This document shows, one piece after another, positions 95-24,051 of a stretch of 64,000 bases of DNA. The translations under genes were made by a program, and so were the position numbers. The DNA lies in the IMG/VR virus record IMGVR_UViG_3300020049_007251. One strand, 5' to 3'. Each line of letters begins with the position of its first letter. The first letter of the stretch is position 1. Under the pieces are notes generated by a model. The model was not told where the DNA came from. It saw only the letters and a list, made by a program, of their open reading frames with translations, and made no database searches. Source of the DNA: an uncultured virus (IMG/VR IMGVR_UViG_3300020049_007251) (lineage: Duplodnaviria; Heunggongvirae; Uroviricota; Caudoviricetes).

Positions 95-106
95 TTAAAA
101 TAATTG

Positions 107-135: not shown

Positions 136-160
136 TTTACCAATGAAAGGAGCGAACGGA

Positions 161-504: not shown

Positions 505-639
505 ATTGGCCAGTCAAGTTATTGGCGGCCGCTTTAATCGCCGGGATGATTCACGGGCCGGTCAACGGTTCAATATTTGCAAAAAGCATGGCCGATAACG
601 ATGCGGATCGCCGGTCATTGCAATCAAAGGAGAAAGTCA

Positions 640-2665: not shown

Positions 2666-2666
2666 A

Positions 2667-3340: not shown

Positions 3341-3375
3341 AAAATTCCGGCCACGTCGGAGAAGGGATTTAAAAA

Positions 3376-4650: not shown

Positions 4651-4689
4651 TTCTGTTAGATTGTGGGCATTTTAAAACGGGGGTCAACA

Positions 4690-5034: not shown

Positions 5035-5313
5035 ATGGAAGAATATCCAAGTGTTTTGAGTTTAATTAGAGCGCAAAAGGTTAAGTTCTACAATAAGCCT
5101 GTAAATAATCACACGAAGCTAGTGATTATGCTCAACGTTTCAGAGTTGCAAAGATTGGCCGATGAAGTTCCGATTTCAAATTCAATTTATAATGATTTAA
5201 TTGCTTTGATGGAAGGAACCGTATCGAGGATTTTAGTTGTCGGCGTGTTTATCGAGATCGGAACGCCGAAAGAAAAGAGAGAATCTTTAATTTATAAATT
5301 CCCGTCAGAATGA
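5035..5313 (+). CDS. Hypothetical protein
   Basis: Abuts preceding stop; 92 aa. Confidence 0.55.
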   Translation: MEEYPSVLSLIRAQKVKFYNKPVNNHTKLVIMLNVSELQRLADEVPISNSIYNDLIALMEGTVSRILVVGVFIEIGTPKEKRESLIYKFPSE

Positions 5314-5343
5314 CGGATTAAAAACAAAAAAGGAGATAATAAA

Positions 5344-5709
5344 ATGGTGCACGATAATCAAGTCAAAGAAGGTGAAGAAGAAACGGCGGCCGCTGAAAAT
5401 ACCGGAGAGGACATTAAGATCAACAATGAAGAAGGTGAATTCACTTCCGAGCTATATCAAGTTGACGGCAAAGGTCAGCTTGAACTAAACGGAATCGACA
5501 CACCGATCGGCGAAAAGGCCGAAGCGTTTCTTCAGGCCGATGCACAGTTTAAGGCCGCAGTAGAAAATCGTCAAGCGGCGATGACTGACTTAGTGTCGGA
5601 AATGAAAGCGCGCAACATCAGAACACTGAAATTCAAGGGCGACAATCTCCAATATCAACCCGGACATATTACGCCCGAAAAGATCAAATTCGTCCCGAGT
5701 TCAACATAA
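5344..5709 (+). CDS. Hypothetical acidic protein
   Basis: AGGAG RBS; 121 aa. Confidence 0.65.
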   Translation: MVHDNQVKEGEEETAAAENTGEDIKINNEEGEFTSELYQVDGKGQLELNGIDTPIGEKAEAFLQADAQFKAAVENRQAAMTDLVSEMKARNIRTLKFKGDNLQYQPGHITPEKIKFVPSST

Positions 5710-5716
5710 AAGTGAT

Positions 5717-5747
5717 GGGGCCGTGCGGTATCGTAACCGCCGGCCCC
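5717..5747 (+). other. GC-rich intergenic stem-loop
   Basis: GGGGCCG-tGCGGT-atcgta-ACCGC-CGGCCCC; no U-tract, so not called a terminator. Confidence 0.6.
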
Positions 5748-5903
5748 ACTGAAAGGTCAAATGAAAAAGAAACCAAAAACGCGATTCAAGAATAAGCGCG
5801 GAACAGTAAGCAGAAAATATTTAATTAAGGGTGACGGTAAGAAGAATCGCCGCGCAAATCAAATTAGAAACAGAACGCTAAGAATAACCGAGGAGAAGTC
5901 AAA

Positions 5904-6389
5904 ATGAGAAAGCAACAATTACCAGAACCGACAGAATCAGGGGAAAGTATTTTTTTGGGAATTAATGTCGTTCTTTCGCTGATTCTTTTAATTGTCATCA
6001 TTATTGGTGCTCACTTAAATAAAAAGTCTAATGACTCCATGACTGGCCGTTTGAACATTATCGAGAATAAAGTGTGGGAATTGAAAAAAGAATTAACTGA
6101 TCGCAAAATCGTCGGGGAATATTTCGACGGTGAAAGATGGTGCAATCTCAAGAGGGGGACATACAACAATGACGATTATGGTGGGTTTACTTGCATCTAT
6201 CCGCCGACCGAAGAATATAATTATTGGGTTTTTGATTATACGATAGTGGCAAATCAAAGAATCGTTTGGTATGAAAGCCCGAATGCAGATTTTACAAAAA
6301 AAGAAGAAGATCGACGTGCTAAAGCCAAGCGAAGTATCGAGAAAAAATTCAGTAAAAATAACTGTATAAGCCAAGCGGTGTCAAAATGA
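5904..6389 (+). CDS. Hypothetical membrane-anchored protein
   Basis: One N-terminal hydrophobic helix; GAGGAG RBS. Confidence 0.65.
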   Translation: MRKQQLPEPTESGESIFLGINVVLSLILLIVIIIGAHLNKKSNDSMTGRLNIIENKVWELKKELTDRKIVGEYFDGERWCNLKRGTYNNDDYGGFTCIYPPTEEYNYWVFDYTIVANQRIVWYESPNADFTKKEEDRRAKAKRSIEKKFSKNNCISQAVSK

Positions 6390-6736
6390 TTACTTGCAGA
6401 AAATGCCAAGGCCCCATCGGTCAGATAGATAAAAAGGGGACAATCGGGTGCATGTGGTGCGACGGGATTAAAGGGAATCCCAAGCACTTCGGTTTTCTCA
6501 CCCTCGCCGAAGTCATTGTCTTGATTCTCGTATTGTCCGCTTTTTTTATGTTTTTCGCAATATCCGGGCTTCAGCGCATCGAACGGATGCAAAAACAAAT
6601 CGTCGCTGACGTTCTTCACGAACAGCAAGAAGCGATCGCCGGGCAAATAGAATTCGAAGCCGAAAAGGTTATAACTAAAAAAGAGCGGGTTCGGTGCATG
6701 GCCGACCCGCTAAAGTGTATCGGGGGTGTCAAATGA
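6386..6736 (+). CDS. Hypothetical membrane protein with N-terminal Cys pairs
   Basis: CxxC...CxxC followed by one TM segment. Confidence 0.6.
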   Translation: MITCRKCQGPIGQIDKKGTIGCMWCDGIKGNPKHFGFLTLAEVIVLILVLSAFFMFFAISGLQRIERMQKQIVADVLHEQQEAIAGQIEFEAEKVITKKERVRCMADPLKCIGGVK

Positions 6737-7329
6737 GAAGTTGGCTCAATAAAGACTCTGGCCTTTTAAATCGCCATGTAATTTTTCTCATAATTATTTC
6801 GGCGGTCGGAGCAAATTTAAGCCGGGAATTATTCATGCCGAAAAACGCTTGCGCCGGGAGCAACTTTTCAACGTTGTCAGAAATAACCAATGTCGTAAAA
6901 ATTAAAAATGACGATGAAATGCAAGAGATCATTGAGGAGATCCGCGAAGCCAGAGAACTAAGTCAAAAAGGTTTAAGCAAAGAAAAGCTCGACGAGTATC
7001 TTGCGATAGCAAACGAAGTATTGAGGGATAGTTCTTCGAGCGCAGTTTATTATGAATGGCTTTTGTATGAGCTTAGCAAGAACATCGATCAGCCAAACTT
7101 GTTTCACTTAGACATGGCTTTATTCTCCGAGCAGGTGAAGCGTGACGGCAGAGATACAGAATTCTTCTCGAGGAAAGAAAGAAACAACGTCCGAATTGCA
7201 GTAAAGGAAAAGAAATTTGACTATGCCTTGCAGATGATTAAAGAAGCAGAAAAGAAATTAAAGTCAAGTTCGGCAGTAGCGGCAATGGTTCAGGTGGGAT
7301 CAATCACGTCAACTTTGTGGCATCCTTAA
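6733..7329 (+). CDS. Putative exported helical protein (allele A)
   Basis: Hydrophobic N-terminus, then a domain homologous to 54117-54689 with many synonymous differences. Confidence 0.75.
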   Translation: MRSWLNKDSGLLNRHVIFLIIISAVGANLSRELFMPKNACAGSNFSTLSEITNVVKIKNDDEMQEIIEEIREARELSQKGLSKEKLDEYLAIANEVLRDSSSSAVYYEWLLYELSKNIDQPNLFHLDMALFSEQVKRDGRDTEFFSRKERNNVRIAVKEKKFDYALQMIKEAEKKLKSSSAVAAMVQVGSITSTLWHP

Positions 7330-7340: not shown

Positions 7341-7933
7341 ATGAAAAAAAATAATAGTGATTTTTGGTATAACTTTGGGTTTATCGCTTTTGCCGTATCA
7401 TTCTTGATCCCGTATTATTTGACTTTCTTTCAAGTAAGGGAGATCAAAAACTATATCTTAGAAATTAAATCCGAAAAAGCNNNNNNNNNNNNNNNNNNNN
7501 NNNNNNNNNNNNNNNNNNNNNNNNNNNNNNNNNNNNNNNNNNNNNNNNNNNNNNNNNNNNNNNNNNNNNNNNNNNNNNNGATTTTTGGTATAACTTTGGG
7601 TTTATCGCTTTTGCCGTATCATTCTTGATCCCGTATTATTTGACTTTCTTTCAAGTAAGGGAGATCAAAAACTATATCTTAGAAATTAAATCCGAAAAAG
7701 CCGTTTTCGACGCTCCCTACGAGCCTCTTCTGGAGTTAAGCAAAGAGTGTTGGGTAAGGGCTCTGGACACACTCAACCAAATCAGGAAAGACAAAGACAT
7801 CAAGAACCCGTCGATGATGATTGGTACAAAGCAGAATATCGGGCACGCTTGGATTAGATACGAGAAGAACGGCAAGGTTTATAACTACGATCCGGCCTTT
7901 GGGAAATTTATCAATATTGATGAGAGTAGATAG
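7341..7933 (+). CDS. Membrane-anchored transglutaminase-like protein, split by the scaffold gap
   Basis: Intact copy at 54701-55072; here interrupted by N run and a 122-bp duplication. Confidence 0.6.
7481..7579. other. Scaffold gap (99 N) with overlapping flanks
   Basis: 7359-7480 is repeated at 7580-7701. Confidence 0.95.
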
Positions 7934-10563: not shown

Positions 10564-10779
10564 GTGCCTGAGTCAAATCCAACACTAACTGTGAATTTAG
10601 CAATTCTTATAGGCATAGCTTTAGGGTTATTATTCTGGTTAATCTACGGGATCTATTGCTTGATTGCTTTTTTAATTAAGAAAATCCAAGAAGGATCTGC
10701 GGCTGTAAAGAGAGAACAAATATTTATTGAAAGATATAATGAGTGGTCAAACGAAGAGGAGGTTCAAGATGGAAAATAA
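10564..10779 (+). CDS. Small one-TM membrane protein (copy 2 at 57703-57918)
   Basis: Long hydrophobic segment. Confidence 0.55.
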   Translation: MPESNPTLTVNLAILIGIALGLLFWLIYGIYCLIAFLIKKIQEGSAAVKREQIFIERYNEWSNEEEVQDGK

Positions 10780-11149
10780 ATGGGATTGGTACATAAGATA
10801 TAACGATACCATAGGGGCACAAAGTAAGCTTTGGCCAGTTGGTGCATTACAGAGGTTCCCCAATAGTATCGATACCACTGGTTGGGTAAAGTGTTGTGGA
10901 CAATTATTACAGGTTAGTATGTTTCCTAAGCTATATGCGGTTATTGGTAAAACTTATGGTTACGACGACAGTGATGGAATCCCTCGTTTTAAATTACTAA
11001 CCTTGCATAGAACGGGATTTGTATCAGAGCGTAAAAAACGTTTTACACTCTCGTTTAATGAACTGGAATTGAGATGTCTACTGGATAAAGATCTACCGAT
11101 TGTTTTAAGGCATAAACTACTCCGGGCTTTAGATAAAATTACTGAGTAA
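10769..11149 (+). CDS. Stand-alone tail-collar-domain protein (copy 2 at 57908-58288)
   Basis: PVGAL...GWVKCCGQLL...FPKLYAVIGKTYG...F matches the collar pattern also present in 17828-18673 and 20820-21848; GAGGAGG RBS before ATG 10769. Confidence 0.7.
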   Translation: MENKWDWYIRYNDTIGAQSKLWPVGALQRFPNSIDTTGWVKCCGQLLQVSMFPKLYAVIGKTYGYDDSDGIPRFKLLTLHRTGFVSERKKRFTLSFNELELRCLLDKDLPIVLRHKLLRALDKITE

Positions 11150-11235: not shown

Positions 11236-11796
11236 TTAGTCACTCCACCAATACCCTGCGGGAATAAACACGTTGGGGTTTGGCTTGAAACTAGCATCCA
11301 GGTCAGCTGGACTTGGTTGCTGACGTATGAACTTAATTGCTCGGTCTAAGGGTTTAAGGAAATCCCATCTTACCTGCTCACTGCAAAACATTTGAAAAGG
11401 ATTCTGGATCCAACGGAGTCGGGTTACCTGGCCAACAAGAACCCCTAGGAAGTCATAGCTATTTTGCCACCACTTTCTTCCCAGTCTCTTTTTAATGTTC
11501 AAGAGGATAATACTTTTTTCCACCAAAGTCAAGTTTCTTACTTTCCAGAATTTCAACATCATTCCTTCGGTAAGATAGACATCGATCGGGTGTTCTTTAA
11601 ACCCTCCGAAATCCTGGGAAACACAGAATCCTGGACGATGCATAATGAAGGCGTGGTTGTAATTTCCTTTGGTATGGGACTTGATGGCGTAACCAATGAA
11701 CCCCCTTAGGTCATCCGCTAAAACAATCAGAGGTAAATCAGCTTCGGTGAATTTTTTAGGATCAGTATACACCTTTCCCTCTTTAATTTCTTCCAT
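11236..11796 (-). CDS. Permuted papain-like (YiiX/YaeF-type NlpC/P60) amidase, candidate lysis enzyme (copy 2 at 58375-58935)
   Basis: His motif YNHAFI precedes YDFLG...FCSE Cys motif and terminal SPADL. Confidence 0.75.
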   Translation of the reverse strand: MEEIKEGKVYTDPKKFTEADLPLIVLADDLRGFIGYAIKSHTKGNYNHAFIMHRPGFCVSQDFGGFKEHPIDVYLTEGMMLKFWKVRNLTLVEKSIILLNIKKRLGRKWWQNSYDFLGVLVGQVTRLRWIQNPFQMFCSEQVRWDFLKPLDRAIKFIRQQPSPADLDASFKPNPNVFIPAGYWWSD

Positions 11797-11956
11797 TTAA
11801 GAACCCCGTGGTTGTGTTAGATTTATACCCAGTGTTCAAGCTTCCGCTACCGTAAATGCTCTCAACATTCGTACCCGTTGCTGTAACTTCCATTTGCCTG
11901 GAAAAAGTGCAGCCGATAATACCCAGCATTAGAATCACTAGAATAAAATCCCTCAT
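11783..11956 (-). CDS. Small lipoprotein, 57 aa, not in the ORF track (copy 2 at 58922-59095)
   Basis: MRDFILVILMLGIIG-CTFSRQ...; lipobox-like Cys16; start overlaps holin stop. Confidence 0.6.
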   Translation of the reverse strand: MRDFILVILMLGIIGCTFSRQMEVTATGTNVESIYGSGSLNTGYKSNTTTGFLNGRN

Positions 11957-12165
11957 AGTTTTTCTCCAGTTGCTTTGGATACAGTCGTAGTAATGGCGTG
12001 TCGAATGTTCATACTTTGGATAGCGGTAAAGACTGCTGTGAGCAACTCCTCGATTGTGATAGCGTGATTAAGGTAGGCAACGATAGCCGTTAGAACAGCA
12101 GCTGTTGCTGTTAGGTAAGTCTTGTAGCCGTTTAAAAGATTGAGTAGTTTGATAATCAAGTTCAT
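11953..12165 (-). CDS. Putative holin (copy 2 at 59092-59304)
   Basis: 70 aa, GYKTYL followed by hydrophobic helices; lysis-cassette position. Confidence 0.6.
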   Translation of the reverse strand: MNLIIKLLNLLNGYKTYLTATAAVLTAIVAYLNHAITIEELLTAVFTAIQSMNIRHAITTTVSKATGEKL

Positions 12166-12359
12166 TCGTGTCTCCTTTGTTTTCTTTCTTCATTTAGTAG
12201 ACCTAAATCAAACCTAAGCTGATCAATGAGAGTAATGGCTAATTCGAGTTTATTTAATTGTATAGCTTTCTCCAGTATCACAATCTTCCTCACACAGTCC
12301 TTAATGTTTTTTAGTTGTTCGGGGGTCATAGTAATTGGGTTGCACTGGTGTTTTTGCAT
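12162..12359 (-). CDS. Hypothetical protein (copy 2 at 59301-59498)
   Basis: Short ORF overlapping neighbours. Confidence 0.5.
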   Translation of the reverse strand: MQKHQCNPITMTPEQLKNIKDCVRKIVILEKAIQLNKLELAITLIDQLRFDLGLLNEERKQRRHE

Positions 12360-12645
12360 TCATTCTCTCGTCAATAAAGTATTTAATATATTTGTCGTGC
12401 CACTCAATTCGTTCTTCCATTTTGCCGTATAGTATGAACCCTCCGACAACGTAGGTGGCAAAGGATCCGATCAATCCAATAATCGCCCACCGCCACTTCT
12501 TACCGTCACGGACGTAATTGTCGTGATCTTTTACAACACCGATCAATCCGGTATTTTCTAGTGTGCCGTCACCTACGAGTAGGACTCTGAAATTTTTAAT
12601 CTCCTTTAGCATTTCATCTTTAAATTCTTGAGTGAATTCCATCAC
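12301..12645 (-). CDS. One-TM holin/spanin-like membrane protein (copy 2 at 59440-59784)
   Basis: Central TM helix; protein identical in both copies despite several nucleotide differences. Confidence 0.65.
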   Translation of the reverse strand: MMEFTQEFKDEMLKEIKNFRVLLVGDGTLENTGLIGVVKDHDNYVRDGKKWRWAIIGLIGSFATYVVGGFILYGKMEERIEWHDKYIKYFIDERMNAKTPVQPNYYDPRTTKKH

Positions 12646-12818
12646 TGACTCCTATTAGTTTTAATGATGCTCTCTATGGTGTGGAGTTCTTTTATTAGGC
12701 TTTGTTTATAAAGTGCATTTAGGTTTAATAAACGTATTCCTGACTTAAAAGATTCTAGGGTCTTTACCATGAACTTATATTTTTCTGGAGGAATAGTCAA
12801 GACTACGTTTTCTATCAT
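12642..12818 (-). CDS. Hypothetical 58-aa protein, not in the ORF track (copy 2 at 59781-59957)
   Basis: MIENVVLTIPPEKYKF...NRSQ; inter-copy differences are synonymous in this frame. Confidence 0.65.
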   Translation of the reverse strand: MIENVVLTIPPEKYKFMVKTLESFKSGIRLLNLNALYKQSLIKELHTIESIIKTNRSQ

Positions 12819-12819
12819 A

Positions 12820-14088
12820 TTAGTAACCTTTGATTGTTGTTGTTCCCGGAGCGTTAAAAGTTAATACCGTACCATATCTAATCGTTGAAGTTACGGGTGT
12901 ACCTGAAGGGGTAAGTTGATAGTTCACTGCAAAGTTCGAAGCTGATAAAGCTTCACGGAAACTTTCACTACACGTAGTTGCTGCTTCCGATATCACACAA
13001 CCTGTAAGGTCAGTCAAGGAGTTAGTATGGTCTCTTAAATTAAATGTCCAAGATTGTACCCCTGCTCCACTTCCCGGAGCCGTGGCTGCCTTAGCATAAA
13101 ATCCCATGGCATATAGATTACCAGGTAATAATTGATTATTCGTAGTAGTGGAAGCAGTAGTCGTTGCTCCTCCTGAGAAGGCTGAATAGTGAACGACACT
13201 TACCGAAGGTGACGCTGCTCCACTGGGAACTACGAAAGTTCCAGGAATACTGGAAGTCAATTTTACACCTGCGGATATGTACCTGGCTGTGGGCGTATTA
13301 GCAGGTACTACTTTTAATGAAAGGATATCTCCCGGTGCCGTAGTTATACTGTTTACTGTATCTTGACATGTGGTAGCTGTTTCGAGTACTACGCAGGTAA
13401 TAGCTGTATCTACTTGATTTTTTCGTAAGGTTATCGTGTAAGATTTCCCTGATGCGCCTGCCCCTGCTGAACCATCTAGGTAAACATAAAGCTGTGAAAC
13501 TTGTGCCACGATGGGAATTAGCCCACCACCTTCGGTAGCATTTGGAGCACAACTACTATTGATACCGAGGTAATTTGTAGCTGAAGCACTAAAAATTGTA
13601 GCTGAGGCTGGACAACCAACGAAGTCATTACGATTTGTATTGGTAATATCCTTTATAACGTAGCCAGTAATTGCACTATATGTAGGTGCTCCGGCTGCGG
13701 TTGTAGCTTGTAAAGATACTGTGTCACCACGTACAAGATTAATTACGTTGGTACTATCCGTACAGGTAGTTGCAGGGTCGGTCATAGTGCAGGTTAACAA
13801 AGAAGCTGAACCATTAACAATCACCGTATAAGCTATGGCACCAGTTCCCCCACCTGGTGCTGTAGCCGCTGAGATACTTAGGTTCCTGAGACTCATGTTT
13901 CCAGCAACTACCATTCTTCTTTTAGTATTGCTAGCATCTCCTCCACCACCCTGACCAAAAGACAAGTAATGATTGGCCGTTACCGTATTACCTGCACTAC
14001 TTAGTGACCACATCGTAGTCAAAGCATGAGCCAATGAGGTTTGAAGTAGCATTAGCAGAGTGATTATAAATACTTTACTTAGTTTCAT
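12820..14088 (-). CDS. Signal-peptide-bearing protein of three tandem beta-sandwich (C1q/BclA-CTD-like) repeats, allele 1
   Basis: N-terminal K + hydrophobic core + AHA; three repeats each with C-x8-C. Confidence 0.7.
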   Translation of the reverse strand: MKLSKVFIITLLMLLQTSLAHALTTMWSLSSAGNTVTANHYLSFGQGGGGDASNTKRRMVVAGNMSLRNLSISAATAPGGGTGAIAYTVIVNGSASLLTCTMTDPATTCTDSTNVINLVRGDTVSLQATTAAGAPTYSAITGYVIKDITNTNRNDFVGCPASATIFSASATNYLGINSSCAPNATEGGGLIPIVAQVSQLYVYLDGSAGAGASGKSYTITLRKNQVDTAITCVVLETATTCQDTVNSITTAPGDILSLKVVPANTPTARYISAGVKLTSSIPGTFVVPSGAASPSVSVVHYSAFSGGATTTASTTTNNQLLPGNLYAMGFYAKAATAPGSGAGVQSWTFNLRDHTNSLTDLTGCVISEAATTCSESFREALSASNFAVNYQLTPSGTPVTSTIRYGTVLTFNAPGTTTIKGY

Positions 14089-14116
14089 ATTTTAAATCTC
14101 CTTTATATTAATTAAT

Positions 14117-16924
14117 TTAATAGTCAAGTTTAGCAATAACATTAGCTGAAACAACGTCCACCGTTCCTCCTCCAGTAGCCGCTGACATTCCGCAATAGAG
14201 TTGGATTTGATCGTTGTAATTCGTTGTGATATACTGAATTTCTGGAATAGCAACTAAGCCTGCACTATCCGTGATTGCACTTAGTATTCTTAAGTCCACC
14301 GTACGTGTGGCATTGGTTAATGCTCCAGCGGTATTGTTCGTACGATAGAGAAGACACGTGGCTGTTTGCGGTGCTGCAAATGTAGCAGCATTATACTTAA
14401 GCTGTGCACTAGCGTTTAATCGATACGTTCCAGGTTGATCAATGGTTATTACTGGAGAAGTAGTCCCAAAGGTTACTGCTGCTGAAGCGTTAGTTAATGA
14501 GTACACGGTACCTGCAGCGTAGGCCGAGATAGTGTAATTAAGTTGTACTCCGTTTGAAGCGTATTCTTGACCACTGGGTAGATTAATTCCTCCTGCGAAT
14601 GAAGAGAACCCTGAGGCAGAAATTCCAGATCCTCCGATAGTAAGTGGAGAAATGAACGGAGAAGAATTGCTATTGATGACGGCGTCATTTACTGCGTACG
14701 TGTTTATGGTATCAGCTGCTCCCATGAGACCGTATTGGTTAGCTGTAATCAGTGGACCACTGGCGTAAATACCGTAAGCCGATCCTGTGGATTTACTGGT
14801 ACGATAGTATCCTCCGTATACGTTAAAGGTAGAAGCAAACGTAGCTCCGGTATCTGTAAATTCAAACGCCTTAGATACCCCGGTAGTCGCTGGAATGATA
14901 ATATTCGGACTATACACACTCAGAGTGGAGACCGCATCTAAAGTAGAAGCTTGTGTACTAGAAATACCGAGACAGGTTCCAGAGGCACAAGCTATGTTGA
15001 TTACTGGATTATAGATTGATCCTCCAGCGTCATTGTATATAATTCCCGTACTGTTACCGCTTGCAGTTGGTTTATTAATTTTAATATTCCTGAGATTAAC
15101 ACTAGCAAGGCTGGTTCCCCCCGTACCGTTAACCAGGATTCCGCTCCAACCTCCGATAAGATCTAAGCAGAAATTTTCAATAGAAACGTTGTCTGCTGTA
15201 ACATTGAAAAGCTGTGTGTTTGTTCCTCCGTAAGTAGCTATGTGAGTACATCCATCAGTACCGCTTCCAATCAGGTGTACCGACTTAGTAATAGAGAGAG
15301 CCGCATTGAATTGCATTGATGGTGGGAAGTAAACTCGATCGTTGGTAGCAACAACATAGGCTATAAAAGGAGCTATGTAGCTCTGTGAGTCTATTGAAGT
15401 AGTTGCACTAGAACTAATTGTCCAAAAGTTACTTGTCTTTCCAGAAGATCCCTTTAGAGTATAAGTACCCGTTGATTTGAGGGAGTATTTACCGTTCGTG
15501 AATTCCACGTTATCAATATGGGCTATTACTGGATCACCAAATCCAGAACCGTCACGGAAGTCAGAAGATACCCCATCACATACCCCGTTAGACCACCAGG
15601 TTTCGTTTACTGTTCCATGCCCTGAGTCATTGGTAACCTTACAGGCTTCACCTGTTCCGGTCGCACCACCAGAGTGAGCATAGCTATAAAAATTACTTAC
15701 CTTTGCATACGTATTAAATAAACTTCCGCCTGCGGATGCGTTCTGGTAGGCAACATCAAGACCTCTACAGAAAGTCGGTGCGTAGGATTGGCAATCAACT
15801 CTAACGTTCCAATCATTGATTGACCCCGACATGTCTGCTTCTGCAGTTGAATTCATCGGAGTACGAATACCCCATGCGCTTGTTGTTGCTGAAGAAGTTA
15901 AAATATTCCCACGTACTCCATCGATTACGTAACCTGAATCGTTAATAACAAAACCGTAAACAGTTGTCATGGAGGCATCGGGAGTAAAATCAAACTGAAT
16001 ATTCCTTAATATGAAAGCATTTTCGCTACCCACCGTACCAGCATTTTGATTAATACTTATACACGAAGTAGCAAAGGCTCCCGTGCAACGGACATTACCA
16101 ATATACATAGGTTTAGTTACGTCTTTGGTAGTAGCTGTAATAATAGCTGCAGCCGTAGCTGTTCTATTAAATAGAGTATTAGCAAAGTCTACCCACACAC
16201 CGCTAGGAATTTCAACCGTTGAAGCGGTAGTAAGAGTATATGAACATCCCGCAGGAAATTGAACTCTTGTACTTTCTGGTAATGCTGCCATATAAGCTAC
16301 AATGTCAGCTGGACAAGATGTCAGCTGTGTGAAGGCTCCAGTAACCTGACTACCTCCTCCACTACTAGTTCCACAACTAAATGAATTCGTAGTAGCATCA
16401 TAGTTCAAATGGTTCCCTCCAGAGTCAGTACACGAAGGAAGTATCGTAGCCTGAAATGCTGTACCATTAGATACCACAGTAGCGTCATCAGCAGCACTAG
16501 AAAGACCAGTACCACCGTTAGCTAAGGGCACCTGTCCAGAAAGTTGCGCTGCAGGAATGGAGGTTAATCCCGAACCACTACCACTAAACGTGGTGGCTTT
16601 CACAGTTCCAGTAACGTCCAGTTTCTGGGTTGGGGAAGCATTACCAATCCCGATGTTTGTACCGTCCGTGTAAAGCATGTTACCGCCAGCAAAGATCCCT
16701 CCGTTATTATACTGAAACTGCCCAGTAGAACCTGCTGGGGTACCACCAAAGGTGGCATCGTTGACAGCCTGAAGAGCCTTTTGGACTGTGTTTGCGTTGA
16801 CAGGTATATTGTCTCCGAAGGTAGACGTATTAACTGTCACGTCCTTGGCTGGGACTCTCGTATCAGCAAAAGCTAAAGATGACGAAAGTAGGATTGCAAG
16901 TAAACTTAAAAACCATTTTTTCAT
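14117..16924 (-). CDS. Fibre/tailspike-like beta-helix protein with signal peptide, allele 1
   Basis: [35 protein letters not shown] fibre motif; pectin-lyase-like beta-helix segments; position after baseplate and fibre genes. Confidence 0.75.
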   Translation of the reverse strand: MKKWFLSLLAILLSSSLAFADTRVPAKDVTVNTSTFGDNIPVNANTVQKALQAVNDATFGGTPAGSTGQFQYNNGGIFAGGNMLYTDGTNIGIGNASPTQKLDVTGTVKATTFSGSGSGLTSIPAAQLSGQVPLANGGTGLSSAADDATVVSNGTAFQATILPSCTDSGGNHLNYDATTNSFSCGTSSGGGSQVTGAFTQLTSCPADIVAYMAALPESTRVQFPAGCSYTLTTASTVEIPSGVWVDFANTLFNRTATAAAIITATTKDVTKPMYIGNVRCTGAFATSCISINQNAGTVGSENAFILRNIQFDFTPDASMTTVYGFVINDSGYVIDGVRGNILTSSATTSAWGIRTPMNSTAEADMSGSINDWNVRVDCQSYAPTFCRGLDVAYQNASAGGSLFNTYAKVSNFYSYAHSGGATGTGEACKVTNDSGHGTVNETWWSNGVCDGVSSDFRDGSGFGDPVIAHIDNVEFTNGKYSLKSTGTYTLKGSSGKTSNFWTISSSATTSIDSQSYIAPFIAYVVATNDRVYFPPSMQFNAALSITKSVHLIGSGTDGCTHIATYGGTNTQLFNVTADNVSIENFCLDLIGGWSGILVNGTGGTSLASVNLRNIKINKPTASGNSTGIIYNDAGGSIYNPVINIACASGTCLGISSTQASTLDAVSTLSVYSPNIIIPATTGVSKAFEFTDTGATFASTFNVYGGYYRTSKSTGSAYGIYASGPLITANQYGLMGAADTINTYAVNDAVINSNSSPFISPLTIGGSGISASGFSSFAGGINLPSGQEYASNGVQLNYTISAYAAGTVYSLTNASAAVTFGTTSPVITIDQPGTYRLNASAQLKYNAATFAAPQTATCLLYRTNNTAGALTNATRTVDLRILSAITDSAGLVAIPEIQYITTNYNDQIQLYCGMSAATGGGTVDVVSANVIAKLDY

Positions 16925-17308
16925 TTGTTTCTCCTTAGCTGTTAATTCCGACTACATATAGTTTATCGTTTATATCTAATCCTACGTTCAAGGTTAATGT
17001 GTAACCATTTATTGTATAGTCTAAGTTGTCTTGTACAACTCCGTTCACTGCTACGTACACAATAGGGTTAGGCTGGAAAGAAAGTGTGAATACGGTCTTG
17101 TTAGCTGTGCCGACCAATTCATAGTACGAGGCAAAATTAAGAACATTAGCCCCCACCACCGGAGTCATGACTTGGTAAAAACCAGCCACCTTGTCTCCGA
17201 TGTCTCTTCCAGGACTTACAGTCAGGGTACTGTCCAAAATAGTGTAATCTCCGTTTAAAGGATCCTGAGCTATCCCATTTATGTTCACGGAAATAATTCC
17301 AGTCAATA
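16555..17308 (+). repeat. Diverged direct repeat (pairs with 63247-64000)
   Basis: Offset 46692; many third-position differences, proteins almost identical. Confidence 0.9.
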
Positions 17309-17450
17309 CCGGGTAGTCATCAAGTTCAAAATCCGTTTGTCCGTCTGAAGTAGCGACAATCGAGAAGTTTCGATACTGGGGTAGAATGGGAAATTGAGAT
17401 AGTGCCTCAATTACTTTCTGCTGTTGTAGTAGCACTATTCCTGGATTCAT
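16935..17450 (-). CDS. Putative fibre adaptor with two internal beta repeats
   Basis: Repeat x-F-x-L...V-x-(I/V)NG-x-x-Q...DYTI...TLT...D-x-x-DK occurs twice. Confidence 0.6.
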   Translation of the reverse strand: MNPGIVLLQQQKVIEALSQFPILPQYRNFSIVATSDGQTDFELDDYPVLTGIISVNINGIAQDPLNGDYTILDSTLTVSPGRDIGDKVAGFYQVMTPVVGANVLNFASYYELVGTANKTVFTLSFQPNPIVYVAVNGVVQDNLDYTINGYTLTLNVGLDINDKLYVVGINS

Positions 17451-17818
17451 TTAGTAGTCCTTTCAATAACATTAGCCGTCCCGAAAATAATTTGTTCTGT
17501 CCACCCACTTACGTTTGTTACTAAAACATCATAACTCCAGCTTCCTACTGGAAGAGTAGTGGTTACGCTTTTAGGGATTAATAATTCTATTTTTCCATTT
17601 GGTCCATCAATTAAAATTGTACCCAGTGCCGTAGAAATATTCACTAGTGGTGTACCCGTAGAACCCACCGTTGGTCTTACCTGCATTTGCACACTGTACC
17701 CAGTGATATTAACTGGATATTTTAGTCCGATCGATTCTACACTTACCATATAAATAATTGGTAAATAAAAATCTGTTCCTCTTACGATATCGATAGCTAC
17801 TTCACAATTATTCTGCAT
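17447..17818 (-). CDS. BppU-N-like tail adaptor protein
   Basis: RGTDF...NITGYSVQMQVR...G-x-I-x-L...YDV pattern. Confidence 0.6.
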   Translation of the reverse strand: MQNNCEVAIDIVRGTDFYLPIIYMVSVESIGLKYPVNITGYSVQMQVRPTVGSTGTPLVNISTALGTILIDGPNGKIELLIPKSVTTTLPVGSWSYDVLVTNVSGWTEQIIFGTANVIERTTK

Positions 17819-17827: not shown

Positions 17828-18673
17828 TTAAGTTTTGATGATGTAATTAAGAACCAATGAAGGTTGAATATTATTGTGTGCATTTCCACCACCTTCAGTT
17901 GAAGTAGAAGCGTCTTGTCTATTGGTATTACTACCACCTGCCGGAGATTCACTACCGCTTCCAGAGTTATGAGCATACCAGGTAGAGTGACTATGTGCTG
18001 GCATTTCTGAGGTAGTTAAGGTATGTGTCTTTGCTCCAGGGTTCGCTCCTAGAGTACCAAAATCAGAATCAGCTGCTTTATATCCTACTGCTACATTTCC
18101 TCTTAAGTCTGGAATATTGAAGGTTGTTGCCCCATCTCCTGCACCATAAGTTGTACCGCAAATTGCAAAAAGGGCTGCATAGGTCGCTCTACTAACTGCG
18201 GCACCGTTACATATTAAATAGCCAGTAGGAGCAATTGCTCCAGCAAACATCTTTACAACCCCTGAAGTCTCAGTGTTCTTAGCACCAATACCAGGCTGCC
18301 AACTTGCAGGAGAAGAAGCAGGAGCATTACCAGTGTTGTTGTCTGCAAGTGATTGGTAGATCTGTCCAGCAATCTGAACATAGCTATCAAGGTAATAGGT
18401 TGTTGCTGAGTCATATTCGGGAATACCCATTTGAAGTAAGTAGGCCAGCATATAGCCATAGACATAGTCTACTGCATTCATGTCTTCAAGAAAAGGTCGA
18501 TTGGTTGCTATTGTTTCAGCTGCCCAACCTCTTGGCCAGGCAGTTCCTGCTTGTAGAGTAGCAATATCTGCTGAATATATTGGAGCAGCATAAGAACCAA
18601 ACTGACCAATTTCAGATCCAGCATTTACTGTGCTCCCGAATTGTAATAGTGTTTTTCTAAGTAGCTTTGCCAT
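17828..18673 (-). CDS. Short tail fibre with tail-collar domain
   Basis: N-terminal QMGIPEYD baseplate-binding region; PTGYLICNG...FNIPDLRG collar; PAHSH; HNNIQP...NYIIK C-terminus. Confidence 0.85.
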   Translation of the reverse strand: MAKLLRKTLLQFGSTVNAGSEIGQFGSYAAPIYSADIATLQAGTAWPRGWAAETIATNRPFLEDMNAVDYVYGYMLAYLLQMGIPEYDSATTYYLDSYVQIAGQIYQSLADNNTGNAPASSPASWQPGIGAKNTETSGVVKMFAGAIAPTGYLICNGAAVSRATYAALFAICGTTYGAGDGATTFNIPDLRGNVAVGYKAADSDFGTLGANPGAKTHTLTTSEMPAHSHSTWYAHNSGSGSESPAGGSNTNRQDASTSTEGGGNAHNNIQPSLVLNYIIKT

Positions 18674-18682
18674 TTAATTCTC

Positions 18683-19285
18683 CTAGATATTAACAATCGT
18701 GATACCTACGCCCATTGGTTTAGGTAGTATGTTGCCAAGAAAAGCACAAATTGTTCCAACGTTATGGTACGGATTTTGTAGATTATAAGTAATAGTATAA
18801 TCAAGGTTATCTACCACGTCTATTGCTCCTTCAAAGATCTCATATAAAGCTTCCTTAATAGTTTTCAAAGAAGTATAATTATTGTTAGCAATGATCTTAA
18901 TCTTTATTAGTGATAGTAATTCAAAGTCTGTAGTGGTATATGAAGTTGTAGTTTGCCAACGTGAAATATAGTAAGTATCTGTTGGAGTACTAAAGCGATT
19001 AAATCCAATACTAGCTGGAACTCCTGAGTACCTAGTAAAATTAAAAAATTCATGGGTAAGATCAAGGCCAAATATTTCTCTGGGAACTCCTACAATATTT
19101 CCTAAGATGGTTAGTTGTTGACCAGAAGCTGTGTCTAGATTAAAAGCATCTTGAAGAGAAAAGACTAATCCATCACAAGCAGCATTGTTCACTAGGCACT
19201 TAATGGTATCTTTTGCCTTAGGTAATTCGGCATATTGGATAATTAATTGATTTGCATAATAGTCTAGTGCTTCAGTTAGTGTCAT
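18683..19285 (-). CDS. Baseplate wedge protein (DUF2612-like)
   Basis: LIIQY...FNLDTASGQQL-x-ILG-x-IVG...LPKPMGV. Confidence 0.8.
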   Translation of the reverse strand: MTLTEALDYYANQLIIQYAELPKAKDTIKCLVNNAACDGLVFSLQDAFNLDTASGQQLTILGNIVGVPREIFGLDLTHEFFNFTRYSGVPASIGFNRFSTPTDTYYISRWQTTTSYTTTDFELLSLIKIKIIANNNYTSLKTIKEALYEIFEGAIDVVDNLDYTITYNLQNPYHNVGTICAFLGNILPKPMGVGITIVNI

Positions 19286-19289
19286 GGCT

Positions 19290-20465
19290 TTAGCTCAACG
19301 TTATTCTAGCGGTTGATAGAACAAATTTATTCTTTTTAGATAAGGGACTCAAAAGATTTACCCAGGTAACTCCATCATTAGAAACTCCTAATCCTGAGCA
19401 AACTACATCTGGGTTAATAGCTCTGATCTGTATATTTAGAGTTGAAACATCTGCTGGATCATAAATACCTAAAATGTAGTTAGTTACTAGAGCTTCTTTT
19501 ATTGCCGTCCGATCAATGGCTGAACCACTAATGGAAACTAGAGTTGCCTGTAGGTAAAGATTTTCATTTACTGCTGAATCATATTGCATAGTAATAGTTG
19601 AAAGATCTACTTGAGTAATAACGTAAGTTAAGGTTCCTTTCATCGGTATACCTAAGTTCCGATAAGTATAAATTGTTTCTCCAATTAGTGCTGCTGTACC
19701 TCCGTCAGTAACTACCCAAATGCCATGTGCTGGAATACCATCAGCATCTACTGCATTAGTAGTATTCTCATAAACTACAGCCTCAGTTACTCCTACCAGA
19801 GAATTTAGTCCTGAAAAGAGAGCCTTCAAAGAACTTTGTGCTGGGAAAGCAGTAGAAGCTTGTCGACGTAATCTGAAATTAGCATCCGTCTCTTGATTCG
19901 TACCTACTTGAGTAGGAACTGCTGGATTATTTACACTCACTACCCCGGCTACAATTGTTACTGGAGTAGTTAAAGTATTTGCCAATACCTGGATAAAACC
20001 AATTGCTGCTGATTGGAAACTAAGGCTAGTAGTTCCAGAAGAAAGAGAAGCTGAAGTAATAAGGTAGAATAAATTACCATTAGAGTCCTGTATAGTAAAG
20101 GGAGTGGAAGTATCAAGTCCGTTCAGGTTAACACTCTGGTTAGTTACCACATCGATGGCCACTTGTGTATAAGTTCCCGGCTTCCTTGTCAATCCTGAAA
20201 TTTGAGCAATACGGTCTAATGATACTCCCACAGCTTGATCTGGATCCATGGAATTATAGATAGCTACACAGAGATTTAAAATATCCATTTTTGAAAGAGC
20301 ATAGATATTAATCATTTGTCCATCTGGTGAATTTGAGGCCACGTTAATATCAGCCCCGTAAATCTGAATCAAACCGGGAGTATCTGAAGTACCATTAGTG
20401 ATATTTGCTACAATTTGTTCAAAGGTTTCAATTTGAATTCCAGCTGCTGTTATTTGATTAGACAT
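19290..20465 (-). CDS. Baseplate J-like protein
   Basis: SPDGQ, DPDQAVG-x-x-LD, GTNQETD-x-x-FR-x-R, YEN-x-T...G-x-PAH. Confidence 0.85.
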   Translation of the reverse strand: MSNQITAAGIQIETFEQIVANITNGTSDTPGLIQIYGADINVASNSPDGQMINIYALSKMDILNLCVAIYNSMDPDQAVGVSLDRIAQISGLTRKPGTYTQVAIDVVTNQSVNLNGLDTSTPFTIQDSNGNLFYLITSASLSSGTTSLSFQSAAIGFIQVLANTLTTPVTIVAGVVSVNNPAVPTQVGTNQETDANFRLRRQASTAFPAQSSLKALFSGLNSLVGVTEAVVYENTTNAVDADGIPAHGIWVVTDGGTAALIGETIYTYRNLGIPMKGTLTYVITQVDLSTITMQYDSAVNENLYLQATLVSISGSAIDRTAIKEALVTNYILGIYDPADVSTLNIQIRAINPDVVCSGLGVSNDGVTWVNLLSPLSKKNKFVLSTARITLS

Positions 20466-20823
20466 TTGGGACTACCTCTAAGGTTTGGGTATAATTTTGA
20501 GTATAGATAGTATTTATGTTGTAAGTCAGAGTTGCTCTACGATTAGAATTAGTAGAATTTAGTGTTAAGCTATTCACACTTACAACTCCATAAGATTGAA
20601 GTATTATAGCTCTGACATTTAATAGGATTTGCTGATCACTATTAGGAGTACCTAAAAGAGTGAACCACTCAATACCAGCTGACATATCAAAAAAGCAATT
20701 ACCAAAAAAGGATAGTATTCTCGTCTGGATATTCTCAGCAATAGCTAATTGGGCTGATAGATAGTTCTCTTTACCCTTACCAAATGTCCAATCGTGATTT
20801 ATATCTAATGCTCTAATGATCAT
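20458..20823 (-). CDS. Baseplate wedge/sheath initiator (gp25-like)
   Basis: RALD...DWTFG-x-G...I-x-TR...F-x-G...G pattern and synteny. Confidence 0.75.
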   Translation of the reverse strand: MIIRALDINHDWTFGKGKENYLSAQLAIAENIQTRILSFFGNCFFDMSAGIEWFTLLGTPNSDQQILLNVRAIILQSYGVVSVNSLTLNSTNSNRRATLTYNINTIYTQNYTQTLEVVPNV

Positions 20824-21848
20824 ATTTTTATAATCCAATTAACCATCTTTGTAGGTTGAACGTTCTGGTGAGGTGTGTCACTACCTTGAGGAGCTACTGT
20901 AACGTTTATAAGACTATTGATTAATTGAGCTTGAACTGCTGCATCAGCACCACCAGCAGCTGAGGAGTCATTTCTAGTATTAGCAGTACTACCGGGGTGA
21001 TCATGTTCTGGCATCTCTGGAATACTAAGTTGGTGGGCTTCTTCTCCAGTATTACCACCTAAGGTATTTCTGTTAGGGTTGTAGGCATTAGTTAAAACAT
21101 TAGCATTGGAACCACCCATATTATCAAGGCCAGCTACTGTACGGCCTCTTAAGTCTGGTACATTAAAGGTAGTTGATCCATCTCCAGAACCATAGGTTGT
21201 GCCTATAATGGCAAAGAGCGTAGCATAGGTAGTACGGCTGATAGCTTGACCATAGCACAATAACCAGCCTGAGGGAGCAGTTGATCCTGCATAAGGCTGA
21301 AGGAATCCAGCTTGATTTAGTCTTTCCCCGGTTAAGTCATTTACTGTTACTAGGCCAGTTGGAAAGTTTAGCTGTACTTGAGTAGTTGAATATCCTACTA
21401 ATGACTGCTGTAGGTTTCTTATACCTACTAAAGCAACAGCATCATTTATATCATGTAATCTTTCAGAGTTTGGTGGAACTACCTGTCCAGTAGCAAACCA
21501 GATATCCATATCACGATCACAAAATAATAAAATACAAGTATCTCCTGGAGTAATCGGGAAGGTTAAATATCCACCTCCTCCATTCATAAAGGCTACTGGT
21601 ACATTTACTAAAGTGGGATAATTAATAACCATATCTGAAACTTCACCAACAATACTAGTAGGGTTTACTCCTTTTATTACCTTCTGGAAATTAACCGAGA
21701 CTATTGCCGTTTGATTAGTGGCATTAAAAGAGATGATCGTCCCCATAGTCAAGCAATTAATTCTTGCTGAAATGTCATTCATTCTTCTAGAAAGAAACTC
21801 AGTTAAGTCTGGTACTATATACCTATTATTTGAAATATTATCTGTCAT
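20820..21848 (-). CDS. Central spike (Gp138-like N-terminus) fused to a tail-collar domain
   Basis: VPV-x-F...GG...TFP...GD-x-C-x-x-x-F-x-DRD...R-x-H-x-x-x-D, then PSGWLLCYG...FNVPDLRG, PEHDH, HQNVQP. Confidence 0.8.
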   Translation of the reverse strand: MTDNISNNRYIVPDLTEFLSRRMNDISARINCLTMGTIISFNATNQTAIVSVNFQKVIKGVNPTSIVGEVSDMVINYPTLVNVPVAFMNGGGGYLTFPITPGDTCILLFCDRDMDIWFATGQVVPPNSERLHDINDAVALVGIRNLQQSLVGYSTTQVQLNFPTGLVTVNDLTGERLNQAGFLQPYAGSTAPSGWLLCYGQAISRTTYATLFAIIGTTYGSGDGSTTFNVPDLRGRTVAGLDNMGGSNANVLTNAYNPNRNTLGGNTGEEAHQLSIPEMPEHDHPGSTANTRNDSSAAGGADAAVQAQLINSLINVTVAPQGSDTPHQNVQPTKMVNWIIKI

Positions 21849-22786
21849 AATCCAAACCTTGCCACAAAGGGAGTTCCAATAAGTTGCATAGTTATTAGCG
21901 TCTTACATTTACCACTTACAGCTGAAGAAATTACTCCGGCATGTTGAACTCCTGTAACCTTATAGGTTCCATTCTGAGAGCTATTAAAAGACTTATCTAA
22001 ATTTGTATCTAGGTAAATCTGTTGTCCAGGAATAATAGAAGGTTCAAATACCATTTCGGCTACTAGATTACTTTGGTATCTGCGAGGACTACCCAGCAGC
22101 CCAGTCTCAGAAGATACCAAATTAACATCACCTTCAAATACATAATTGTTAGGTAGGCAATAGATTTTTCCATTATCAATATATGAAAGCCTATTAGTTT
22201 CTACCTGTAGTAGATTCCAGGTATAATCATTGGCGGTATAGGTATAACGATTAGCTAAGAAGCCACCTACTACCCCTGTTGAAAGGGTTTTACCATACTT
22301 AGTAGCAGTAAGTTTAAGGTCATCTATCAGCCTATTAATTATTCCTTCTTGATTTACTGGATTGCTATTGTCCCCTATAGTCCAATGAGAGAAGCTATTA
22401 GACATGATTAATGAGTAGTCTTGTGCTTCAATCTCAGTAATAAAATCTGTACCTCCCTCTTCCCGACATGAGGATATAGATAAAGCAATGCCATTAAATA
22501 TGGTAGAGAGAGGAGTATTTAAGTACCCAGCTTTTACTATTAGTGTAGGCAATCTTCCAGTATCAAACCAATCCTTATAAATCTGTGATCTAATACTGGA
22601 ATTTAGATTACGAATACGAAAGGTACCTGATTGAGCAGAAGCTAAAACATCACGTCTTACAGAAAATTCCATAGTTAGAAGGCTTTCACCATTCTCGGAA
22701 CCTATATTGAAAAGGGTACCATCTATGCCTTGAATTTGCATAGTGTAGGTTCTCTGGAATTTATTTGTGCTAGTAATTAATGGCAT
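21845..22786 (-). CDS. Baseplate hub protein
   Basis: I-x-NL, KAGY, IF-x-G, TGLLGSP, G-x-YKV...H-x-G motifs and synteny. Confidence 0.75.
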   Translation of the reverse strand: MPLITSTNKFQRTYTMQIQGIDGTLFNIGSENGESLLTMEFSVRRDVLASAQSGTFRIRNLNSSIRSQIYKDWFDTGRLPTLIVKAGYLNTPLSTIFNGIALSISSCREEGGTDFITEIEAQDYSLIMSNSFSHWTIGDNSNPVNQEGIINRLIDDLKLTATKYGKTLSTGVVGGFLANRYTYTANDYTWNLLQVETNRLSYIDNGKIYCLPNNYVFEGDVNLVSSETGLLGSPRRYQSNLVAEMVFEPSIIPGQQIYLDTNLDKSFNSSQNGTYKVTGVQHAGVISSAVSGKCKTLITMQLIGTPFVARFGL

Positions 22787-23157
22787 TAGTTTAAGGGATA
22801 GCCTACAAAGTTTGGTAAAGTTATTGTTATTAAAGTCTCAGTCTCAACTAAATCCAGTTCATTTAAAATATATAATGCTGCTCTACCATCTACGAAATCA
22901 CTTTGGTATATTGGTTCATAACCATCTACGACTAAGCAGGCTAATCCAAATGGGATAATGTCTCTGAACTGTCTTAGCATATTAGGTGAATTAACTATCC
23001 TACGATTATTAACTACAAAGTCATTGTAGGTTAGGGAGTAAAACCATCCCAGCTGATTGGGGCAATAGCTTAGAGTAATATTAACCCTGGTCCCATCATC
23101 TAGCAAGATGGCCAATACTTGATTTGCATCATTAGTTAAAGAGGTTATCTGCTTCAT
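22786..23157 (-). CDS. Baseplate protein
   Basis: Synteny between tube initiator and hub. Confidence 0.6.
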   Translation of the reverse strand: MKQITSLTNDANQVLAILLDDGTRVNITLSYCPNQLGWFYSLTYNDFVVNNRRIVNSPNMLRQFRDIIPFGLACLVVDGYEPIYQSDFVDGRAALYILNELDLVETETLITITLPNFVGYPLN

Positions 23158-23160
23158 AGA

Positions 23161-24051
23161 CTAATACTCATTTGGGGCACCGGCTTGTTGAATATAGAGA
23201 TTTTGAGAAGTATTTGCTACTGAAATTAAATTGCCATTTGAGTCATTGGACTTCCCAGGATCTGTGCCTAAACTTACAGGTTGAGAAGTCATTTGTTCAA
23301 AGCGTCCGCCTGCCTCACGAGGTAAATTAGAAATAGACCCAAGGTTCTGAGCTACTATAGAACTGGTATTGCCAGAGAAGACTGTAGTAGAAGTCGTTTG
23401 TATTTGTTTAAAGGTAACTACAAATTCACTAATAAGGTTAGTATCCCCAGATTGATAGGCACGAACTGATTCTATGGCCATGTTCTCAAATACTGCAAAT
23501 GGAGTTTCTACTGAGCACAGTTGTCTAGTTTTCCACATATTGTAGAAGAACTGATATACAGTTTGTTGCTTATTAGTTGTAGTAGAGGATTGATCAAATA
23601 GTTGAAATACGTTCTTTACCTGCTTTAGAACATTAGTGCCTAACTGAACTACATCATTTACCTTAGCATAGAATTGAGCATCCTGGATATTGAATTGAGG
23701 AGTTAGTCCACCCAAAGTAGAAAGACCAGTTACCTGGGTAAAGATACTAGCTAAAGAATTTGGTATGGTATCTACTTGTTCGCCTACTAATCCCTTAAGA
23801 GAAAACCTAACCGGCCTTAGTGCTATGTGGTCTTGTATAGCATAATTCTGTTCTACATAGTGATCAGTAATATCTGAGTCTAAGCTTATTTCTTCATCAT
23901 CAAGTATGTCCATTACAAACCCAGAAACTCCTACAACATTGGGCATTCCTAGTGGCCTAACTATAGCTTGATTCACTACTGAAGAAAGTAGATTAGCAGC
24001 ATTCTGAACTAAGTTTGGTTTCTTTGAAGCAAAGTTTAAGTTTAGGCTCAT
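23161..24051 (-). CDS. Tail tube initiator/distal tail-like protein
   Basis: SDITDHYVE...IQDH...P...NM-x-IES; follows tape measure. Confidence 0.7.
   Translation of the reverse strand: MSLNLNFASKKPNLVQNAANLLSSVVNQAIVRPLGMPNVVGVSGFVMDILDDEEISLDSDITDHYVEQNYAIQDHIALRPVRFSLKGLVGEQVDTIPNSLASIFTQVTGLSTLGGLTPQFNIQDAQFYAKVNDVVQLGTNVLKQVKNVFQLFDQSSTTTNKQQTVYQFFYNMWKTRQLCSVETPFAVFENMAIESVRAYQSGDTNLISEFVVTFKQIQTTSTTVFSGNTSSIVAQNLGSISNLPREAGGRFEQMTSQPVSLGTDPGKSNDSNGNLISVANTSQNLYIQQAGAPNEY

Follow-up and report, generated by a model that had tools for sequence, protein, structure and literature searches.

According to the textbook account, the assembly of tailed phages is entirely cytoplasmic. We analysed a 64,000-nucleotide stretch of DNA from an uncultured tailed phage (IMG/VR IMGVR_UViG_3300020049_007251; hereafter the window), in which a cassette of one large and one small fibre-like gene, present in versions A and B, encodes proteins that all begin with predicted Sec leaders. 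Several described systems resemble this cassette in part. Tailspike depolymerases share with it a right-handed beta-helix centre, a place at the end of the tail module and modular exchange behind a conserved N-terminus; the cassette proteins differ in their Sec leaders, paired cysteines, TNF-like knob and separate three-repeat partner, and the fold matches are weak. In the two-part fibre tip of T-even phages, gp37/gp38, the fibre gene has behind it a small separate adhesin gene that varies together with the tip, and the cassette likewise places a small partner gene after a large fibre gene; gp38 is cytoplasmic, whereas the small cassette protein bears a leader. TNF/C1q-like fibre knobs (the tip of phage 7-7-1, 9rkv; BclA; C1q heads) have the jelly-roll fold of the repeats and of the large tip, but the small protein fuses three copies in one chain, like engineered C1q/TNF trimers.

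Two further systems combine phage-like proteins with export. In the available text of their description, the mosaic adhesive trimer (MAT) fibres of Bdellovibrio bacteriovorus have a signal peptide and a conserved N-domain of ~130 amino acids (aa), then a phage-like trimeric fibre with a variable tip (PMC10769870). The cassette matches this layout with a signal peptide ahead of a conserved N-terminal module, a shaft like that of phage fibres and exchangeable tips; it differs in its non-homologous N-terminal domain, in the position of its genes in a phage tail operon, in the lack of S74 and in its two-gene arrangement with a single-chain pseudo-trimer as partner. PBSX XepA, as far as its available description goes (PMC6834076), is exported and absent from particles. 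It resembles the cassette, with its predicted export and putative lysis genes, as an exported late protein coded between tail and lysis genes and built of jelly-roll domains, and differs as a ~280-aa pentameric dumbbell of a Gram-positive element, for which that text describes no classical leader.

The cassette has the beta-helix or fibre fold and the tail-module position of tailspike and fibre receptor-binding proteins, but bears leaders, which those proteins, assembled in the cytoplasm, lack. Its predicted Sec leaders and paired cysteines set it apart from known phage fibres.

All four cassette proteins begin with signal-like leaders

The cassette genes all lie on the minus strand. Version A consists of large protein A (14117-16924; 935 aa) and small protein A (12820-14088; 422 aa), and version B of large protein B (61247-63616; 789 aa) and small protein B (59959-61215; 418 aa). 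The original prediction, made from the DNA letters alone, ascribed basic-hydrophobic-AxA leaders to the four proteins, and the open reading frames (ORFs) and N-termini were found as it had described them. Signal-likeness was called with a home-made heuristic of hydropathy, charge and AxA motif, or by eye, rather than with SignalP. By the heuristic, each of the four N-termini runs from Lys/Arg through a hydrophobic stretch to AxA, and all four have the features sought for Sec/SPase I substrates, namely a basic n-region, an h-region of 10-15 residues and a small-x-small motif. The signal peptide of large A covers residues 1-20 (16865-16924, minus strand), with cleavage predicted between AFA and DT. 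Across the cassette proteins the predicted sites are AFA/D, AHA/L and AFA/T, which leave D, L or T at position +1, and the residues right after the predicted site are conserved among homologues. Only 6 of the 113 non-nested genes in the window were signal-like by the heuristic; four of these are the cassette genes, and the other two encode a 150-aa cell-wall hydrolase (42584-43036) and a membrane protein.

The translation starts agree with the leader ATGs. AAGGAG lies 6-9 nucleotides (nt) upstream of the ATG at the three starts that were read (large A, small A and small B), the N-terminus of large B, the fourth, is identical to that of large A, and no in-frame start was seen just past the hydrophobic stretch in the cassette ORFs. 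The survey of homologues that had been proposed as a check on leader retention was run, and a leader was present in all six close homologues of large A (53-87% identity), with differing leader sequences; leaders are present, though diverged, in the large A homologues P0031-33 and P0038. Among homologues of the N-terminal region, five that do not start with Met were excluded, and the same heuristic called 42 of the other 88 signal-like; for the centre and tip, it did so for 13 of 27 homologues. The leaders of the two small proteins are indeed unrelated in sequence yet both signal-like.

The lipobox with Cys at +1 and the small size of receptor-blocking phage lipoproteins such as T5 Llp and Cor were not found in the cassette proteins, which are predicted to be cleaved after AxA and measure 418-935 aa. 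Among the matches listed in searches of the literature on phage fibres and tailspikes, secreted depolymerases and bdellophages, no description of signal peptides on tail fibres was found, and the available text of the genome paper of Bdellovibrio phage phi1422 (PMC3391216) does not contain the term "signal peptide".

Paired cysteines track the leaders

A Cys-x(8-9)-Cys pair occurs in each of the three repeats of the small protein. An alignment of the family was built with 23 rows, the two window proteins and 21 of 25 matches; one 99% copy, two fragments and one near-duplicate were left out. By eye, 14 rows had a leader, 8 were leaderless and one (P0022), on a 3-kb contig, was without a called leader. 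Both cysteines were present at 36 of 42 repeat pair sites in the leader rows versus 0 of 24 in the leaderless rows, and at all three sites in P0022. An exhaustive profile search among metagenome-derived proteins returned 16,785 representatives of the family (E<=0.001). From 140 new proteins among the 150 best matches listed, together with 10 earlier matches, 96 were of full length (380-460 aa, Met start), and at least two close cysteine pairs were found in 33 of 37 leader-bearing versus 5 of 59 leaderless proteins (Fisher p = 4e-16, a value that ignores relatedness). Two of these five leaderless proteins look like cases of a cut-off leader. As judged from these alignments, the small-protein family exists in two forms, one leaderless and poor in cysteine at the pair sites, the other leader-bearing and with its cysteines in pairs. 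In large A, 16 cysteines are arranged in sequential pairs, and the cysteine content of the A proteins is 1.7-1.9%, versus 0.69% in 24 other structural proteins.

The association of leaders with cysteine pairs is as predicted for proteins that fold in an oxidising compartment. Sec would carry both cassette proteins across the inner membrane, their leaders would be cleaved off, and disulfide-bonded folding would follow in the periplasm; we regard this course of events as very probable.

By these searches the small-protein family is large and so far uncultured. The Atlas clusters with the three-repeat architecture are ~93% viral. Among GenBank phages (50,697 records), no tblastn match was obtained for two members of the family, and searches with P0009, small A, large A and the DNA of the cassette likewise came back empty; by these searches the family is carried by no cultured phage that has virion proteomics. 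Leader-bearing members occur also in high-GC phage contigs that are unlikely to be from Bdellovibrionota. On one high-GC IMG/VR contig (L074, 43,090 bp), two adjacent leader-bearing proteins (4259-7116) share their post-leader peptide, and one of them is a three-repeat member.

Predicted folds and variation of the cassette proteins

The AF2 model of large A (pLDDT 70.8) has a disordered shaft, a confident beta-rich/beta-helical centre, a linker and a jelly-roll tip. The N-terminal module and fibre shaft occupy residues 21-195 (16340-16864, minus strand; low pLDDT as a monomer), the central region, recognised by AF2 and Foldseek, residues 196-752 (14669-16339, minus strand), and the C-terminal tip residues 796-935 (14120-14539, minus strand). 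Phage tailspike depolymerases rank first among the Foldseek matches (Klebsiella K2-2 TSP, CBA120 TSP4 and Acinetobacter tailspikes; E 7.5e-8 to 1e-3), with TM values of only 0.15-0.25, which makes these matches weak overall. The tip matches BxpB and ExsFA (TMt ~0.6). Large B has the leader and N-terminus of large A, a centre with Pfam Beta_helix and NosD matches and a homologous tip. The fibre and beta-helix features named in the original prediction were thus recovered in both versions, and with its tailspike-type beta-helix the large protein is probably a polysaccharide depolymerase. A PDB sequence search gave no match for large A, and PHROGs and Pfam gave none for large A or either small protein.

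In the AF2 model of small A (pLDDT 82.7), three TNF/C1q-like jelly rolls follow one another in one chain behind the leader (~13639-14022, 13243-13638 and 12850-13242, minus strand). The top Foldseek matches are engineered single-chain C1q and TNF trimers. In VIA comparisons with TNF/C1q-like knobs, the repeats gave Z 7.5-10.1 with a root-mean-square deviation (rmsd) of 2.5-3.5 over 105-120 residues. The best VIA match per repeat was the tail-fibre tip of Agrobacterium phage 7-7-1 (9rkv; Z 10.1, rmsd 2.5, 108 residues), with TNF ligands, C1q heads and BclA ranking next. The small protein thus has the ten-strand jelly roll and three-fold head of such knobs, with the head formed by one chain instead of three. 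A match to XepA was seen for repeat 2 of small A only and is weak (Z 8.1).

The conserved N-terminal region claimed in the original prediction exists in the large proteins, which are 86% identical over residues 1-145, and does not extend to the small proteins, which are 41% identical over their full length, share the three-repeat body and have unrelated leaders. In conservation, the N-terminal module of the large proteins equals or exceeds the phage backbone, and their tips are 47% identical. Elsewhere, the full N-terminal module was found in only 1 of 7 loci of a metagenome scan. The shaft motif of large A is common to many fibre proteins. Homologous tips occur on both leader-bearing and leaderless fibres, and a 552-aa fibre without a leader, encoded on another viral contig (L008), ends in a single repeat.

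An IMG/VR contig of 26,340 bp (L006) carries the cassette in a different phage backbone (5573-9936), with a large protein 76% identical to that of the window and a three-repeat protein, both with leaders. There the cassette is preceded by proteins of 881 aa and 550 aa and by a 300-aa fibre-anchor-like protein. The occurrence of the cassette in this different backbone suggests that it moves between phage types.

Two related genomes in one record

Versions A and B had been taken for two alleles. They belong instead to two related genomes that lie head to tail in one 95-kb record: the window spans ~1.36 copies of a ~47-kb phage genome, its 1-17 kb recurring at 47-64 kb, and the nearest record, of 95,131 bp, carries both cassette versions. 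The structural genes of the two copies are 79-83% identical at the nt level, and by this comparison the copies are not strains of one phage. The cassette is the sole stretch with almost no DNA similarity between them, and identity returns directly after it.

Within copies whose structural genes are 79-83% identical, positions 7580-7879 and 54719-55018 agree at 100%, and the head-to-tail record may be an assembly join via this shared identical block rather than a real concatemer. The early regions differ: 1-6400 has a GC content of 45-47% and exonuclease, RecT-like and SbcC-like genes, and 47700-53600 has a GC content of ~35% and genes for a DNA polymerase, SSB and another exonuclease, which suggests mosaic replacement of a replication/recombination module. 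A perfect 122-nt direct repeat (7359-7480 and 7580-7701, spacing 221 nt) lies within small early genes, and GAT/GAC-rich repeats at 50789-51056 encode the Asp/Ser-rich acidic tail of an SSB-like protein (50126-51139). No tRNA genes were found in the window.

Neighbouring genes

The tail module ends with the cassette. The place of the cassette after baseplate and collar-fibre genes is as the original prediction had it, with hub, wedge, DUF2612 and collar-domain fibre genes directly upstream. This baseplate block (17828-24051, minus strand) encodes a collar-domain fibre of 281 aa, DUF2612, wedge proteins, a spike with a collar domain, a hub, a plug and a Dit-like protein. The N-terminus of the 281-aa collar fibre is common to phi1422 gp73 and prophage fibres. 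Two small leaderless proteins of 171 aa and 123 aa are encoded between the collar fibre and the cassette (16935-17818, minus strand); the latter matches phrog_1084, the former has no PHROG or Pfam match, and both are candidate adaptors. No leaderless paralogue of the beta-helix or of the repeats was found among the three neighbouring leaderless tail proteins compared (123, 171 and 281 aa).

Downstream of the cassette, the small genes at 11236-12818 (minus strand) encode proteins with one transmembrane segment, a 57-aa lipoprotein (11783-11956) and a 186-aa protein. They gave no PHROG or Pfam family matches, and their membrane features and their synteny with phi1422 gp69-72 make them possible lysis genes. 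Beside them, on the strand opposite to the tail module, an ORF encodes 140 aa with a phage tail collar domain (10727-11149, plus strand); it recurs at 57866-58288 (plus strand). The signal-like 150-aa hydrolase (42584-43036, plus strand; SleB-type, phrog_938, Pfam Hydrolase_2) is a candidate exported endolysin, coded far from the putative lysis genes.

Phage type and candidate host

By PHROG and Pfam matches the phage has terminase, portal, capsid, sheath and baseplate genes as well as replication genes of its own. Of the 113 genes, 68 ORFs were scanned, and none of these matched an integrase or any other lysogeny family; from its gene content the phage looks lytic. TerL is closest to that of Bdellovibrio phage phi1422 (48.8%, the best of 2,103 records), with Nitratiruptor phages a close second (46.5%). 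As the available text of its genome paper has it, phi1422 is a phiPLPE-like dwarf myovirus (PMC3391216). Its gene order is the same as that of the window phage. By TerL and gene order, phi1422 is the closest cultured relative, and the window phage is likewise assigned to the phiPLPE-like dwarf myoviruses. At the cassette position phi1422 has gp68, which bears a leader.

In 4 of 4 cases, namely phi1422 and the three Bdellovibrionota prophages, the fibre encoded after DUF2612 is leaderless and leader-bearing ORFs come next. The leader-bearing ORFs at this site are gp68 (614 aa) in phi1422 and, in the prophages, ORFs of 603 aa; of 137, 667 and 538 aa; and of 169 and 187+ aa. Shaft segments are common to the window proteins and two of the phi1422 and prophage proteins, with up to 68% identity over 50 residues. 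Leader-bearing fibre proteins were found in none of the three non-Bdellovibrio members of the phiPLPE group (Aeromonas phage 56, Vibrio phage 138 and phiPLPE). Elsewhere in phi1422, gp75 (170 aa; 44298-44810) and gp01 (1-828) have signal-like leaders too, and the gp75 counterpart in one prophage (G143) is apparently leaderless.

These relationships, together with a 47%-identical cassette copy on a 3,986-bp contig of a Pseudobdellovibrionaceae metagenome-assembled genome (MAG; G002), suggest that the host is probably in Bdellovibrionota; the leads are modest identities and this one short contig. The MAG is only a weak lead because it has no match to the phage TerL or wedge protein. Homologues of the capsid protein, in prophages, were found in 3 of 401 sampled Bdellovibrionota genomes. 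The N-terminal 180 residues of large A had one weak match among 38 genomes of the order to which the MAG belongs, and none in the MAG itself.

Possible roles of the exported proteins

Fibre-like proteins that leave the cytoplasm might still end up on virions. The cassette would then be a two-gene, highly variable host-surface recognition module. The small protein, once its leader is removed, would be a ready-made pseudo-trimeric knob. Oxidised fibres would wait in the periplasm and, when the inner membrane is breached at lysis, dock by the N-terminal module on fibre-less particles, with the small protein acting as the distal adhesin. By our own estimate, the seconds that separate the breach of the membrane from the rupture of the cell could be enough for fibres in the periplasm to attach to particles. 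We infer, at somewhat less than even confidence, that such docking is the likeliest next step after export. It is favoured, at that same tentative level, by the fibre architecture, the N-terminal module conserved like the backbone, the host-range-like hypervariability, the lytic lifestyle and the lack of a leaderless paralogue among the three neighbours compared.

Several observations weigh against docking or loosen its support. We know of no tailed phage that takes Sec-exported proteins into its virion, and leaderless fibres able to serve adsorption, such as the 281-aa collar fibre, are also present in this phage. The closest homologues of large A are without the N-terminal region of ~190 aa and have only 25-45 residues between the leader and the enzyme domain. 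The original prediction had the proteins exported, folded with disulfides and docked through a conserved region of ~100 aa; the co-variation of leaders and cysteines speaks for its first part, and the short N-termini mean that docking through such a region is not general. One copy of a large A homologue is on a short MAG contig and has no phage genes around it. The 171-aa candidate adaptor was not found upstream of the one other N-terminal homologue with a readable flank (L056). Of 12 loci in which an ORF could be called, 0 paired a leaderless three-repeat protein with a same-tip fibre; one more locus had no ORF. Finally, the leader and cysteine statistics ignore phylogeny, and the leader calls are heuristic or by eye.

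Nearly as likely is the alternative that the original prediction itself had named, a secreted depolymerase or receptor blocker. The large protein and a lectin-like partner would be late proteins exported to act on the envelope polysaccharide of the infected cell or its neighbours; they would remove or mask receptors, sparing progeny from loss on debris, or clear capsule or matrix for release, in analogy to a receptor-destroying enzyme or to PBSX XepA. We hold this to be a serious if tentative possibility. The leaders and cysteine pairs support the export on which it depends, the close homologues of large A do without shaft or docking region, leaderless fibres exist in the same phage and, to our knowledge, all Sec-exported phage proteins known so far are non-virion proteins. 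The cassette also lies directly before the putative lysis genes, as does xepA in the available account of PBSX (PMC6834076). Fibre shafts and a conserved N-terminal module would, however, be unneeded by a free enzyme, and a cytoplasmic enzyme would be freed by lysis anyway. The three tail proteins compared also included no virion-borne paralogue that carries this specificity domain, which would leave a receptor-destroying role without its matching receptor-binding protein.

Another possibility is display on the surface of a predatory host, where fibres anchored by the N-terminal module on the infected predator would change its binding to prey or other cells in the manner of MAT fibres. The host leads point to Bdellovibrionota, and the order of signal peptide, N-domain, phage-like fibre and variable tip is that of the MAT layout as far as the available text goes (PMC10769870). 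Long proteins with S74 occur in 190 of the 401 sampled Bdellovibrionota genomes, and one MAT-like chromosomal protein (L028) ends in the jelly-roll domain of the small protein. A profile of the cassette N-terminus matched long proteins in 124 of the 401 genomes, essentially through the shaft motif only, with matches starting at about position 45-57. The N-terminal module itself differs from the MAT N-domain: the cassette has no ~130-aa beta-rich domain directly after the signal peptide, and blastp of its N-terminus against three S74-bearing MAT-like proteins, which share an N-domain of their own, gave no N-to-N match. By these comparisons the cassette is MAT-like in layout but lacks the N-domain that defines the MAT family. 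The phage moreover looks lytic, its cassette genes lie in a late tail operon, and leader-bearing members of the small family occur in the high-GC contigs that are unlikely to be from Bdellovibrionota, which together make surface display improbable.

Least likely, and very improbable, is that the hydrophobic N-termini are not used for export, being uncleaved structural segments or parts of fibres assembled in the cytoplasm as usual; gene position and fibre architecture would suit this, but it does not account for the canonical n-h-c layout with AxA, for leaders that diverge freely yet stay signal-like, or for cysteine pairs that track the leaders and are unexplained in a cytoplasmic protein.

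Implications for phage biology

The wider proposal that follows from docking is that some tailed phages finish their virions outside the cytoplasm, with Sec-exported, disulfide-locked receptor-binding fibres added only when the envelope is breached; we put it forward tentatively, as clearly short of an even chance. If true, extracytoplasmic completion would be widespread, given that leaders and cysteine pairs occur together in about 4 in 10 of the 96 best full-length proteins from a family of 16,785 representatives, and it would tie the fibres of phages to the MAT fibres that predatory bacteria secrete. Since cultured phi1422, with gp68, has the same layout, the question can already be put to the test. 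There are two outcomes: phages secrete fibre-like enzymes and lectins as a matter of routine, or the periplasm is where some virions are finished. Each would add a step to phage biology. The answer bears on the origin of the phage-like adhesin fibres of predatory bacteria and on how host range is read from metagenomic phage genomes.

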